Assembly (NCBI GenBank): GCA_963665275.2 | Contig: CAXXIN010000007.1 | Location: 288,001-352,000, forward strand | Source of the DNA: Negativicutes bacterium | GTDB lineage: Bacteria > Bacillota > Negativicutes > UBA1444 | Direction of reading: 5' to 3' | DNA: 64,000 nt | Shown here: positions 20,756 to 25,441 of the stretch, piece by piece | How positions within the stretch are numbered: the stretch's first letter is position 1 | Layout of the letters: each line of letters starts with the position of its first letter | The notes under the pieces: model-generated | Databases searched by the model: none | What the model saw: the letters and a program-made list of their open reading frames with translations, nothing else | Told to the model about the DNA's origin: nothing | Made by a program: the position numbers and the translations under genes

Positions 20756-22432
20756 TTAATAGTTTCCGTTTCGACATATAAATTTGCAATAGAAGCTAAG
20801 AATAGGACCCCTGAAAAAGACACCGGGTTTCCTGCAGCGAAGCTTGCAGGTATACCGTTGAGACACAGGGGTCTGAATCATAGAGTCTGCCAGGCCTTGG
20901 TTTATGCTTGCCACCTCTGTAGTCACTGTCGAGATTTCTGGCAAGCGTCCGAACATGAACGCGGCCAGTTCCGGCTCTCCGTCAGAGTATACAAATCCTT
21001 CTTCACCAGATTCAATATTTTCAAGTGTTCCCGCAACAACCACACCAGTTTCCAAGCCCCACTCTTCCAGAGCCGGCACTTCCTCAATAACATCAACGGT
21101 GCTTTCTACCTCAGTAGAGGCTTCTTCCTCAACGATTTCTTCTACCGCAACGATTTCCTCTGCCGCAGCGACTTCCTCTACCGCAGCGACTTCCTCTACC
21201 GCAGCGACTTCCTCTACCGCAGCGACTTCCTCTACCGCAGCGATTTCTTCTACCGCAGCGATTTCTTCTACCGCAGCGACTTCCTCTACCGCAGCGACTT
21301 CCTCTACTTCAGCGACTTCCTCTACTTCAGTTGCAATATTCTCGAAAACTTCGTCCACTATGCGTTCTGCCGAGTTCTCTGCTTCTGTGATTGTGCCGCC
21401 GGCAACTGCTACTGCGAATGGCGAAATACCGAAACCTTCCTGTGCAAAGTTTTCCATATCCTCCATATCTGATTCCATGGCAAGATCGACAACTGTGGTC
21501 ATTGCAGCTTCCGCAGAGGCTTCGAAATCAATTTCGATACCGGTGAAATCTTCCGCCAAAATCCAACTTAAATCCTCAGACGCAATATTTAGATGCCCTG
21601 TTGGGACTTCTGTTTCATTTTCAGGTTTGGTTTCTTCTGTGACCAGGATTTGGATTTCATCACTTTCAATTATGCATGCTTCAACTTCAGGAAGCGACTC
21701 ATTCTCAACCAAAGCGAACGTTTCATTCAAGGAGTTTTCCGCTGGTGTTTCCATGACTGTTTCTTCCACCAGCGCAACAGCTTCCATTTCATCAACCACT
21801 GTTTCAGGTACCAACGTCAATTTGCGGATCGCCATGATGAAGTTCGGATCCAGCAATAGCACCAATCCACGAATCGCCGCCAGGAATTCTTCATCGTTTG
21901 CCTTCGCCAGTTCAGTTTCAGTTGGCTCGATTACAACTGCATCCAGAACTTTCTCAGGCAAAGCTACTGCCGGAGGCAACAGTGTCAATCCACGAATCGC
22001 CGCCAGGAATTCCGCCTCACTTACCAGCTTTGGTTCCGGCTTGGGTTCCGGCTTAAGTTCCACCGGCTTGCTTTCTGTCATCGTGGTTGCGTTGACTATC
22101 GTTAAAACAGGAACTTCTTTATTAGGAACAATGTCCTGTTCACGCTTTTCAGGAGCTGTCATCATTCCTGTCGAAGCAAACGACAGTTGCATCCCTCCCC
22201 CAAAATGCTCATGATCCAATGCAGCTGTTCGCCGGAAGACACTTCCCCATTCGGACATGTGTAGCCAGATATAAGGAATGATCTGTGTCAACAGAATGTA
22301 GGCGAACAACATCGCAACATATAATTTTATAAACAGCAGAATATTCCCTATCGGAAGCAACCACGGATTGGCAGCAAAATGACCTACCAGAAAACTTGCC
22401 AGGAATAATCCGGACCATCCCACAGTCTTCAT
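20756..22432 (-). CDS. Membrane-anchored, very acidic repeat protein; C-terminus possibly frameshifted
   Basis: RBS AAGGAGG, two N-terminal TM helices, Glu/Ala/Val-rich body; composition changes abruptly in the last ~40 aa. Confidence 0.7.
   Translation of the reverse strand: MKTVGWSGLFLASFLVGHFAANPWLLPIGNILLFIKLYVAMLFAYILLTQIIPYIWLHMSEWGSVFRRTAALDHEHFGGGMQLSFASTGMMTAPEKREQDIVPNKEVPVLTIVNATTMTESKPVELKPEPKPEPKLVSEAEFLAAIRGLTLLPPAVALPEKVLDAVVIEPTETELAKANDEEFLAAIRGLVLLLDPNFIMAIRKLTLVPETVVDEMEAVALVEETVMETPAENSLNETFALVENESLPEVEACIIESDEIQILVTEETKPENETEVPTGHLNIASEDLSWILAEDFTGIEIDFEASAEAAMTTVVDLAMESDMEDMENFAQEGFGISPFAVAVAGGTITEAENSAERIVDEVFENIATEVEEVAEVEEVAAVEEVAAVEEIAAVEEIAAVEEVAAVEEVAAVEEVAAVEEVAAAEEIVAVEEIVEEEASTEVESTVDVIEEVPALEEWGLETGVVVAGTLENIESGEEGFVYSDGEPELAAFMFGRLPEISTVTTEVASINQGLADSMIQTPVSQRYTCKLRCRKPGVFFRGPILSFYCKFICRNGNY
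21135..21330. repeat. 18-bp coding tandem repeat, about 11 units (EEVAAV)
   Basis: TCTACCGCAGCGACTTCC and close variants in tandem. Confidence 0.92.
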
Positions 22433-22650
22433 CTTCGGCCCTCCTTGACACAATAAACTCACAGCAAAGCCCACTTGTACCTATTATTTTACAGAGCGCC
22501 CTGCTCATTGGCATTCTAACATTGGCATAATGAATGCTAAAAAAACGCAGCGATTATTATACGGGTTCAATAACAGGTTCTTTCAAACGATCTCAACACA
22601 AAAAAGCTTCTCGCCAAATCACGAGAAGCTTTTCAGTATGAACAACGATG

Positions 22651-23170
22651 TCAGTAGGAAGCCTTTCCTTTCATCAAAACCGTTTTGAAATGCCAGCCTT
22701 GGTAACTTGCCACTCCCTCGATGATCTGGCGTACCTGGGCATAGTCCCAGCTGTAGTCAATCACCTTGCCGCCAATCCCGTAGCCGGTTTCATTCACAGT
22801 ACCGGAACGGGCCGTTCCATCGGTTCGGTAAGTCTCAGTCTTGAAACTGAAAAAGGCCCCCAGCCCCTGACCGGTCTCCTTGATGATTTCCCAGAAGATG
22901 ATCGTTCGTGTCCCTGAATCCGCCAGCAAGCGTGCCGAGTATTCGACTTTCTTCTTGCCCACCCCCCAATTCGCATTTGCCAACTCATTCGAAATCTCAA
23001 GGTCGGCTTTCTGTCCCCAGACCAGAGAAAGTTGCGGATACGGCGACAATGCCGTCGCAATGGATTGCAAGAGGGTTTGCCTGTCATCGGAGGACAGCCA
23101 CTCGCGCACCGCAGTTACTGCAAAAACTGTCTGAGTTCATGACGGGCTGACCACATTGATTACAGAACAT
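22651..23170 (-). CDS. Zinc-ribbon domain protein, one frameshift near 23090
   Basis: MFCNQCG...FCSNCGA starts at ATG 23170 behind RBS GAGGAGGG; body continues in ORF 22651-23109. Confidence 0.7.
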
Positions 23171-23199
23171 AATACGTTCCCTCCTCGTATAATTATGTT

Positions 23200-23420
23200 C
23201 GGGATAAACAGGGAAACCTGTTGAACCTCTCCGCTTGTCTCCCGAGGAACAATCGGAGATACTAATAGCAGAGGACAGAGGAGATCGTCTTCCTCCTTGA
23301 GGTTGAACCTCGAAATTGAGAGTGATCCCTCTGGCCCTGCGGTCCATCACGAATGAGCTGGATGTTGGCCGGTACGACTGGTACTTCGCATGTCTCACGA
23401 GGTTGTGTGCCGCAGCTGCT
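23200..23420 (+). ncRNA. Predicted IS110 bridge RNA (ends approximate)
   Basis: Internal loops matching target flanks (CTTCCTCCT 23289-23297, AAATTGAG 23313-23320) and donor junction (AGCTGG 23356-23361, ACGAG 23397-23401). Confidence 0.75.
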
Positions 23421-23452
23421 GGAGGTTATCTGTCCCAAAGGGAGGTGCGCAC

Positions 23453-24634
23453 ATGATCATCGTCGGCATCGACATCGCCAAGCGCAGTCATGAGGCCTGT
23501 CTGATGAATGAATCAGGCGGTTTGCTGGGAAAACCATTTTCGTTCCCCAATTCTCTCGCCGGAGTTGAGCTTTTGTTCAAGCAGGTTCAAAAACTCAATC
23601 CCACTTTGCTGCCTGTTGTGTTCGGCATGGAAGCAACCGGTCATTACTGGCTGCCCCTTTATTCCCGGCTGATACAGGATGGCCATGTCGTCCATGTGAT
23701 CAATCCCATTCAGTCCGACAGCCTTCGCAATCTGTACATTCGCCAGACTAAAACGGATGCAGTCGATTCCTTTCTCATCGCTGAGGTCATTCGCTTCGGT
23801 CGGTTTACGCAAACCACCCTGGCCGAACCCGATTTAATTGCGTTGCGTCAACTTTGCCGCTATCGTTTCTCACTGGTAGATAATATATCCGATCTCAAAC
23901 GCAAGGTAATCGCCCTCTTGGATCAAGTGTTTCCGGAATATGAGTCCCTATTTTCTGATCTGTTCGGAGCCTCTTCCCGCCAGATGCTGGCGGAGTTTTC
24001 CACTCCGGAGGAGTTTTTAGCGGTGGATTCTGGGAAGTTAGCTGGCTTGCTTGAACGAACCAGCCGTGGCCGCTTCGGCCTAGATCAAGCTCAACGGATT
24101 CAGAATGCCGCAAAGCATTCGTTTGGAGTCAAATTGGGGATAGACGCCCTGGCCTTTCAATTGCGCCAGCTGGTGGCTCAGATTGTGTTTCTGGAAGAGC
24201 AATTGGCTGAGCTTGGCGAACAAATCAGTGCCTACTATGACCGCTTTTCTTGCACGTTGCATACGGTTCCCGGTATCGGCAAAGTCTTGGCAGCAGCCAT
24301 CCTCAGTGAGATTGGCGATGTTCATCGTTTTTCCGCTCCTGAGAAATTGGTTGCCTTTGCTGGGATGGATCCTTCAATAAAGCAGTCCGGCGAATTCACC
24401 GGCAGCCAAAGCCATATGTCCAAACGGGGCTCGCCGTATCTGCGCAGAGCCGTTTGGTTAGCAGCGTTCCCCGCTTCTAAATTCAATCCGGTCTTTGCTG
24501 CGTTTTATCATAAGAAACGCGAAGAGGGCAAAGCCCATCGTGTTGCTCTGGGCGCGGTTTCTCGCAAGTTGCTTTATACCATTTTTGCTCTTCTCAAATC
24601 TGGTCAAGCCTATGATCCGATGTTGGCACGCTAA
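23453..24634 (+). CDS. IS110 DEDD recombinase/transposase
   Basis: VGIDIAK, GMEATGHYW, KTDAVDS, TVPGIG, AGMDP...QSG, SKRG.PYLR. Confidence 0.96.
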   Translation: MIIVGIDIAKRSHEACLMNESGGLLGKPFSFPNSLAGVELLFKQVQKLNPTLLPVVFGMEATGHYWLPLYSRLIQDGHVVHVINPIQSDSLRNLYIRQTKTDAVDSFLIAEVIRFGRFTQTTLAEPDLIALRQLCRYRFSLVDNISDLKRKVIALLDQVFPEYESLFSDLFGASSRQMLAEFSTPEEFLAVDSGKLAGLLERTSRGRFGLDQAQRIQNAAKHSFGVKLGIDALAFQLRQLVAQIVFLEEQLAELGEQISAYYDRFSCTLHTVPGIGKVLAAAILSEIGDVHRFSAPEKLVAFAGMDPSIKQSGEFTGSQSHMSKRGSPYLRRAVWLAAFPASKFNPVFAAFYHKKREEGKAHRVALGAVSRKLLYTIFALLKSGQAYDPMLAR

Positions 24635-24685
24635 ATTCAGTCGCACCTGTTGACTTTTCATAGCTGGTCTCAATTTTCCTGAAAA

Positions 24686-25441
24686 TCACCCGAAAAGATT
24701 CTTAATTTGATTGTTCTTTTTGCAATAGTCATACCCGATTGAATACAATTCTTCAGCGCGGCTGGTATCTAGAATATTATATTTCTCCAGTCCCGCAGGT
24801 TCTATTAATAAGTCGCATTCATGCTCCAATATTTCTTTATTGATCCCGATACTCAATTCAAAAGTTCTCATCGCCACTTCAATTAAGTTGCCGATCTTGT
24901 GAGTTTCTTTCGGTGAGAGAATATTGATGGCAACAATCTTATCGCACTGACCAACAAGAGGCTTATATGGCAGGTTATCCAGCAATCCTCCATCAACATA
25001 CAGCTGCCCATTGATTTCTACCGGTGCAAACAGAATCGGAATAGAACATGAAGCCTGAAGTGCAGGAATTAAAGCGCCCTCGTTGATGTACTCAACTTTT
25101 CCATTATACAAATTCGAAACTGCAACATAAAAAGGCAGCTTTAAATCGGAAAAATCACTGGCTGATAACTGTTTTTCAATATTTTCCTCGAACTTATCCA
25201 GTGTGAAAAAGCCTGTAATTGGCAACCGCACTTTCGCATAATCCAGAAACTTATTATCTTTCATTAGTGCCATTATTTCATCCGGTTTCTTGCCGGAAGC
25301 AATAAATGCGCCAACAATCGCGCCGGAGCTGACGCCGGAAACAACATCGGGGATAACGCCTTCTTCTTCCAAGGCTTTCAGTACGCCAAGATGGGCAAAC
25401 CCTCTGGTCCCTCCGCCGCCTAAAGCTATTCCTATTTTCAA
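24686..25441 (-). CDS. Patatin-like phospholipase
   Basis: LGGGGTRG, GVSSG nucleophile elbow, ASCSIP, VDGG. Confidence 0.95.
   Translation of the reverse strand: MKIGIALGGGGTRGFAHLGVLKALEEEGVIPDVVSGVSSGAIVGAFIASGKKPDEIMALMKDNKFLDYAKVRLPITGFFTLDKFEENIEKQLSASDFSDLKLPFYVAVSNLYNGKVEYINEGALIPALQASCSIPILFAPVEINGQLYVDGGLLDNLPYKPLVGQCDKIVAINILSPKETHKIGNLIEVAMRTFELSIGINKEILEHECDLLIEPAGLEKYNILDTSRAEELYSIGYDYCKKNNQIKNLFG

Follow-up and report, generated by a model that had tools for sequence, protein, structure and literature searches.

The element and its recombinase

The window analysed here is a stretch of 64,000 nucleotides from a Negativicutes bacterium (NCBI GenBank assembly GCA_963665275.2, contig CAXXIN010000007.1, positions 288,001 to 352,000 of the forward strand), and within it lies an insertion sequence (IS) of the IS110 group that consists of a recombinase gene, a left end of 267 nt upstream of that gene and a right end of 36 nt (Table 1). 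We conclude that this is very probably an intact, recently active element that combines a DEDD/serine recombinase with a bridge RNA encoded in its left end. A sequence-only reading of the locus had proposed such an element, and the features that it named, comprising both ends, the promoter boxes, two stems with their loops and a GAGG/CCTC hairpin, are all present in the sequence. The ends lack long terminal inverted repeats, and a 2-bp core stands at each junction and a single time in the empty site, a trait of the IS110 group. The predicted RNA region is located upstream of the gene, the opposite of the IS1111 arrangement, and a long left end with an upstream non-coding RNA serves as a criterion for the IS110 group in Durrant 2024 (PMC11208160) and Siddiquee 2024 (PMC11187229).

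Table 1. Positions of the element and of its observed and predicted parts in the window
Feature	Position	Strand	Basis or remark
Occupied target, left half TTCCCTC	23177..23183	+	three copies compared
IS110-group element, whole	23184..24670	+	1487 bp, CT core counted at both junctions
CT core dinucleotide, left copy	23184..23185	+	sequence, three copies, empty site
-10 box TATAAT	23188..23193	+	sequence; TAT pairs with ATA 24660-62 as sub-terminal repeat
Predicted bridge RNA, about 215 nt	23200..23415	+	fold, alignment, covariation; both ends inferred
Two predicted 5' hairpins, ACAGG/CCTGT and CTCCG..CGGAG	23211..23259	+	single-sequence fold only
Predicted target-binding loop module	23273..23336	+	covariation; outer stem 23273-86/23324-36, inner hairpin 23299-23311
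Left target guide CTTCCTCCT, 7 nt plus CT core	23289..23297	+	site matches, clade covariation at -1 to -5
Right target guide AAATTGAG, reverse complement of CT-CAATTT	23313..23320	+	site matches, clade covariation at +1 to +5
Predicted donor-binding loop module	23337..23415	+	covariation; stems 23337-43/23409-15 and 23348-50/23405-07, inner hairpin 23364-72/23378-87
Left donor guide AGCTGG, same letters as right end 24662-67	23356..23361	+	sequence
Right donor guide ACGAG, reverse complement of CT-CGT at 23184-88	23397..23401	+	sequence
Recombinase gene, 393 aa	23453..24634	+	PF01548, PF02371; GGGAGG at 23440-45 precedes
Short right end, 36 nt: -35 box, ATA, AGCTGGT-CT	24635..24670	+	sequence
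-35 box TTGACT	24650..24655	+	17 bp from the -10 box only in joined ends
CT core dinucleotide, right copy	24669..24670	+	sequence, three copies, empty site
Occupied target, right half CAATTT	24671..24676	+	three copies and empty-site contig

Judged by its sequence, the gene product is an IS110-type DEDD/Tnp recombinase. PF01548 (DEDD_Tnp_IS110) matched over all of its profile positions (1-155 of 155) with an E value of 6.8e-45 and 153 bits against a cut-off of 29, PF02371 (Transposase_20) matched at 4e-27, and phmmer comparison with solved structures returned the transposases of IS621 (8wt6_A, E 1.1e-24) and ISCro4 (9t56_A, E 5e-24). Residues D7, E60, D102, D105 and S312-G313 are aligned opposite D11, E60, D102, D105 and S241-G242 of IS621 (the PDB chain numbering of IS621 is offset by two in this alignment), which are the residues named as catalytic in that protein (Hiraizumi 2024, PMC11208158). 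With an uninterrupted open reading frame (ORF), both domains and the five catalytic residues in place, the recombinase appears to be intact, as had been inferred. The start was placed at 23453 because relatives begin at the corresponding MIIVGID position and because a GGGAGG motif precedes it; a longer ORF from 23390 (414 aa) was ruled out as the start on the same comparison with relatives.

Three occupied sites and one empty site

The genome (3.97 Mb in 20 contigs) contains three copies of the element that are 100% identical over exactly positions 1-1487, and no further IS110 recombinase gene was found in it. The flanks of the three copies are unrelated, and identity stops at the CT cores: the junctions read ..TTCCCTC-CT..CT-CAATTT.. 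at the window copy (L003), ..CATCCTC-CT..CT-CACTTA.. at L001 and ..CTTCCTC-CT..CT-CAAATT.. at L002. When public sequencing runs were compared against positions 22900-24950, a metagenome contig from run X6 was found to join 23183 to 24669, skipping 1485 bases, with three letters that fit either side of the joint. This contig reads TTCCCTC-CT-CAATTT with a single CT, which stands twice at the occupied site, and it is exactly the empty site that had been predicted, so that the reading passes the first of the two refuting tests set beforehand. Run X6 contains two additional right junctions, with flanks starting CAA-CTG.. and CAATT-ATT.., and in run X8 the element is present at a site like that of L001. 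A second contig from run X6 joins 23186 to 24691 and looks like a strain in which 20 intergenic nt on the right-hand side of the insertion are missing; the sequence to the left of 24691 also differs in run X8.

The element was not found in 40 other genomes, 11 of them from the same genus, apart from 104 nt belonging to a related left end in one of them (G010), an absence that is not proven because many of these assemblies are fragmented. The same-genus genomes were uninformative on the empty site: the left-flank gene alone is conserved, at about 70% identity, and past it the sequences no longer correspond. In G010 (contig C23, locus L094, positions ~2027-2200), a segment of about 100 nt is similar (77% identity) to the 5' portion of the left end, and some 40 nt after it comes TTTTTCATAGCCGGT, which looks like a right end; a recombinase gene is absent, and the stretch may be a decayed or miniature derivative of the element. 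A 414-aa ORF that adjoins it encodes a glycosyltransferase, not a transposase.

Guide segments match the insertion sites

Two segments of the left end correspond to the two sides of the insertion site (Table 1). The left target guide CTTCCTCCT agrees with the left target and core at 9/9 letters for L002, 8/9 for L001 and 7/9 for the window copy, where one difference is a G:U wobble, exactly as first stated; the right target guide AAATTGAG agrees with the right target at 8/8 letters in the window, 7/8 at L002 and 6/8 at L001. The other two copies are thus located at sites related to the loops, and the second refuting test set beforehand is passed as well. Counting non-core letters only, the pair of guides matches the three sites at 12, 11 and 10 of 13 positions. 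Over all three sites the agreement amounts to 45/51 letters, whereas the highest total seen when the left end (267 nt) was shuffled 2000 times was 40. On the plus strand of the element CTTCCTCCT, AAATTGAG and the right donor guide ACGAG occur once each, and the left donor guide AGCTGG four times. The 15-mer composed from the target guides has no exact match among the genome's 7.9 million positions, and 2, 23 and 219 sites are found within one, two and three mismatches, respectively; the occupied sites are one, two and three mismatches away. The preferred site is about CTTCCTC-CT-CAATT. Complementarity between the target guides and the target extends to either side of the core, which is represented by CT at the end of the left guide and by AG in the right one, and the additional run X6 sites read CAA.. 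and CAATT.. to the right of the core.

Relatives of the element were examined for the same correspondence. Scanning one genome per species yielded 148 relatives of the recombinase, and the best 80 were kept for analysis; among these, most are from Bacillota and the nearest is 56% identical. The upstream regions align in 66 loci with sufficient flank (the window copy included), and ends were called in 46 of them, representing 42 distinct insertion events; addition of the two other copies from the window's genome gave 44 events in 34 guide classes. A left end was called only where at least four of six letters agreed with TATAAT, four bases past the core, so the -10 box is present in the relatives by construction; under this rule, the first left-end calls for L038, L048, L077 and L082, which were wrong, were called anew. 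Loci with uncallable ends were dropped (L005, L006, L010, L012, L013, L028, L029, L031, L033, L036, L037, L041, L042, L055, L065, L077, L079, L080, L082 and L083). Four of these, L077, L079, L080 and L082, share the right donor guide AACAG, an apparent left end CT-TGTTATA and a left target guide that ends in TT, and in this subgroup the core or junction departs from the simple rule.

Since the target guides were not used in calling ends, permuting guides against flanks provides an independent test. With one event per class, guides matched their own flanks at 287 of 442 positions, compared to a permuted mean of 170 (sd 9.6, maximum 216), and none of 20000 permutations reached the observed value; the loops covary with the flanks, as the reading of them as guides had called for. 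Expressed as own versus cross matches, the left side gave 0.95/0.91, 0.89/0.39, 0.82/0.51, 0.89/0.42 and 0.57/0.26 at positions -1 to -5, and the right side 0.93/0.40, 0.84/0.27, 0.70/0.26, 0.43/0.29, 0.59/0.25 and 0.30/0.35 at positions +1 to +6. The core letters vary less in the right guide than in the left: the right target guide ends in AG in 34/34 classes and the left one in CT in 22/34.

These values also bear on the length of the right target guide, which had been put at 8 nt. An exact match of 8/8 letters at the window site agrees with that figure; across the clade about five positions are supported (+1 to +3 strongly, +4 to +5 moderately) and +6 is not, suggesting that the working guide comprises about 5-7 nt including the core, and not clearly 8.

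A check of the boundaries that made no use of guides was possible where elements occur in several copies. Of 16 multi-copy pairs of relatives with calls, 12 are identical up to a point 0-9 nt past the core predicted at each end; in total, 22 pairs gave agreement on both sides (12), on the right only (2), failure (the pair L077/L082) or had no calls (6), and one pair, L043/L044, represents a single insertion locus in two genomes. At L008 the right flank starts CT-CGTATAATAA, which resembles the left end of a different IS110 element, and this insertion could lie beside the end of another element.

Structure of the predicted bridge RNA

The left end is predicted to fold into 5' hairpins followed by two internal-loop modules (Table 1); the two modules are supported by covariation in an alignment of 53 distinct sequences of relatives (A1). 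At default settings RNAalifold returned 12 pairs on A1, every one with compensatory changes. In a fuller consensus, 83.2% of cells were paired compared to 67.9% after shuffling, and the covariation score was 0.443 as opposed to 0.198, a value reached by none of 500 shuffles; sliding the partners by one to three columns lowered the score to 0.10-0.14. Compensatory changes are present in five helices. In the target module, both sides have changed in 11/13 pairs of helix 1 (the outer stem) and 4/4 pairs of helix 2 (the inner hairpin), and in the donor module in 7/7, 4/4 and 7/7 pairs of helices 3, 4 and 7 (two stems and the inner hairpin). Within the window sequence, the target-module stem contains AGAGGAGATC (23277-86) paired with GATCCCTCT (23324-32), the GAGG/CCTC hairpin is placed between the two target guides, and the donor-module stem pairs GCGGTC (23339-44) with TGCCGC (23409-14). 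RNAalifold helices 5 and 6, which lie inside the donor loop, were rejected as structure as none of their pairs has a compensatory change; such an absence is as expected of guide segments.

Donor guides and a predicted promoter split over the ends

The donor module carries two further guides, AGCTGG and ACGAG, and these match the donor junction AGCTGGT-CT-CGT, as had been proposed, at ends whose positions follow from the three copies and the empty site without recourse to the guides. The right donor guide includes the AG of the core. In relatives the left donor guide varies with the right end (AGCCGG, AGTTGG, AGTTAG), and the right donor guide and its partner take the forms ACAAG/CTTGT, AGCAG/CTGCT, AGGAG/CTCCT and AGTAG/CTACT; this agreement represents consistency only and was not counted, because the ends in relatives were located with those guides. 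The donor is flanked by ATA (24660-62) and TAT (23188-90), and a short ATA/TAT sub-terminal repeat of this kind has been described (Durrant 2024, PMC11208160).

Joining the ends at the core is predicted to give a junction that reads ...AGCTGGT-CT-CGTATAAT..., in which a -35 and a -10 box are separated by 13 + 2 (core) + 2 = 17 bp, the spacing given in the sequence-only reading. All 44 events (44/44) have TTGAC among the final 40 nt of the right end, at 17 nt from the -10 position in 43/44, and no complete promoter-like site is present in the left end as integrated. By analogy with IS621, excision would join the right to the left end at the CT core, and the joined ends would assemble a sigma-70 promoter (TTGACT, 17 bp, TATAAT) from which the left end could be transcribed. 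The resulting RNA would fold into its two internal-loop modules, the donor-loop segments AGCUGG and ACGAG would hold the joined element ends, and the recombinase would exchange strands adjacent to CT. That the RNA is transcribed, that a circle forms and that catalysis proceeds in this way are inferences from the known systems. The letter that follows the right target guide is A in 45/53 sequences and that following the right donor guide is G in 51/53, and target position -1 is C in 39/42 events; these letters could form handshake pairs with the donor T and the target C, comparable to the handshake positions described for IS621 (Hiraizumi 2024, PMC11208158).

Alternative explanations

Several observations weigh against an active element with a bridge RNA. 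Ends were uncallable in 20 of the 66 aligned relatives, including the L077/L079/L080/L082 subgroup, whose right donor guide misfits the apparent left end, and the permutation counts overstate significance because the relatives are kin. The left donor guide in the window matches six letters only, the next letters of the RNA being AT where the donor has T-CT. When folded alone, the window sequence is only weakly better than its shuffles (z = -1.94), and an Rfam scan of 22900-24950 with E values up to 10 returned no matching family. No RNA of the left end was seen: the only contig from an RNA library (run X20, 181 nt) corresponds to 24037-24217, inside the ORF, which does not bear on the bridge RNA, and a metatranscriptome contig by itself cannot demonstrate a transcript. 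Finally, no reads across a circle junction were found, the sole raw-read run (X23) having yielded no reads on the region, and this run therefore informs on neither circle junctions nor empty sites.

In one alternative, a structurally complete element has become immobile and its three copies arose by duplication of larger segments, in line with a copy number of only three, the lack of an observed circle junction and the failure to find the element in 40 other genomes. Such a fossil is improbable given that the copies are 100% identical, that their identity halts at the CT cores amid unrelated flanks, that an empty allele exists at the same locus together with two more right junctions in run X6, and that the ORF is open with all catalytic residues present. 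Marginally less probable still is a genuine IS110 copy whose target is picked by the protein or by local DNA structure, with incidental matches between loops and sites. A simple C/T-rich motif (CCTCCT), which might be recognised by other means, is indeed common to the sites, and no guide RNA was seen directly in the runs examined. However, in 34 guide classes the loops change along with the flanks, to the left as well as to the right of the core, the matching segments are unpaired internal loops between covarying helices, and the equivalent loops of IS621 have been reprogrammed experimentally (Durrant 2024, PMC11208160). We see hardly any chance that the main role of the left-end RNA is to regulate the recombinase mRNA as its 5' untranslated region, instead of to serve as a free guide; the structured region does stop about 35 nt before the start codon with no terminator-like site between them, but a regulatory leader would leave unexplained why the loops track target and donor, and the two roles are not mutually exclusive. 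An intact element with a bridge RNA thus remains the best explanation, and natural variation of the loops with their sites is the only proxy for the putative programmability of its recombinase, which had been suggested from the outset.

Comparison with known bridge RNA systems

The element shares with IS621 of E. coli (PDB 8wt6) a two-domain DEDD + Tnp recombinase with aligned D, E, D, D and S-G residues, a CT core, a long left and a short right end, and a promoter, predicted here, that is split over the joined ends. The predicted RNA likewise consists of 5' hairpin(s) followed by two internal-loop modules, ATA...TAT flanks the donor in both, and in both systems the left guides read as the top strand and the right guides as its reverse complement. 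Nevertheless, the two are distant, the phmmer match being confined to two stretches, and they differ in several respects. IS621 recombinase has 326 aa as compared to 393 aa here, the additional 67 aa lying between the two domains; its RNA is 177 nt in length, whereas the one predicted here is about 215 nt within a left end of 267 nt; and its right target guide comprises 4 nt as opposed to about 5-7 nt. The right donor guide is a contiguous 5-nt segment here, unlike in IS621, and the target is Shine-Dalgarno-like, also unlike IS621. IS621 targets a REP-like site. Right guides longer than the 4 nt of IS621 have already been reported for other orthologues (Durrant 2024, PMC11208160). The ISCro4 transposase (PDB 9t56) matches over the same two stretches as IS621 and is equally distant.

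CazIS110-1 of Caloranaerobacter azorensis, for which a bridge RNA was shown by small-RNA sequencing along with in vitro transposition (bioRxiv 10.1101/2025.10.25.684509), is comparable by its description, being a multi-copy IS110 element in a Bacillota host, the phylum to which the nearest relatives of the window recombinase also belong. The seekRNA elements ISEc11 and those of the IS1111 type likewise have RNA-guided DEDD transposases, and their circular intermediate creates a promoter (Siddiquee 2024, PMC11187229). Elements of the IS1111 type carry their non-coding region downstream of the gene and have their guides in the reverse order, whereas the element in the window has this region upstream and so follows the IS110 type.

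Because bridge RNAs were predicted in 85.7% of IS110 elements (Durrant 2024, PMC11208160), we regard the element as an ordinary example of the known RNA-guided bridge recombinases described in 2024, and its clade may already be included in the supplementary orthologue tables of that study. The family gains a natural orthologue that is well documented, its boundaries being exact, its guides readable and its sites represented by three occupied and one empty; the 34 related guide classes show natural reprogramming, and the right target guide exceeds that of IS621. The element is a candidate for recombination assays, and the understanding of the family is unchanged. The only part that possibly deserves a dedicated look is a tendency to insert at ribosome-binding sites.

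A tendency to insert next to ribosome-binding sites

Read on the opposite strand, the target is AATTG-AG-GAGGAAG, which is Shine-Dalgarno-like, and the reverse complement of TTCCCTC (23177-83) forms the ribosome-binding site of a leftward gene starting at 23170 (start codon 23168-23170). Each of the three insertions in the genome sits immediately upstream of a gene's Shine-Dalgarno-like sequence and start codon, and the gene reads away from the left end. In the clade, an ORF start occurs within 30 nt on the left side in 21/38 events, compared to 7/39 on the right side (Fisher p ~9e-4, uncorrected for kinship), and CTCC is found within the left target guide in 15/34 guide classes, this element included. 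CTCC in the left guide resembles the anti-Shine-Dalgarno tail of 16S rRNA, by which such elements would home to ribosome-binding sites. We therefore put forward, tentatively and with more doubt than confidence, that the clade might home to ribosome-binding sites, inserting shortly before a start codon, within a few bases of it, and always in the same orientation, such that the host gene keeps its ribosome-binding site. If the preference is selected and not incidental, a motif located upstream of many genes in every genome would serve as a portable landing pad, and every insertion would separate a gene from its promoter. IS110 elements of the IS900/IS901 type in mycobacteria insert in a fixed orientation beside host ribosome-binding sites, as this clade tends to do. 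The part of PMC8141618 consulted mentions a ribosome-binding site only in regard to the hed ORF, and a literature search on ribosome-binding-site targeting by IS110 or bridge RNA elements returned nothing specific.

Neighbouring genes

The gene to the left of the element (22651-23170, minus strand) is split into two ORFs, one of 28 aa that encodes a zinc ribbon (start 23170, stop 23084) and one of 152 aa that is out of frame with it (22651-23109), and its same-genus orthologue is a single ORF of 176 aa (L088, 1483-2013). The split gene could be frameshifted beside the insertion or could reflect an assembly error. To the right of the element, a patatin-like phospholipase is encoded on the minus strand (24686-25441; PF01734, 5.4e-37). 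Further to the left, a 572-aa ORF on the minus strand (20756-22474) is very rich in acidic residues and contains a run of VAAVEE/IAAVEE repeats.

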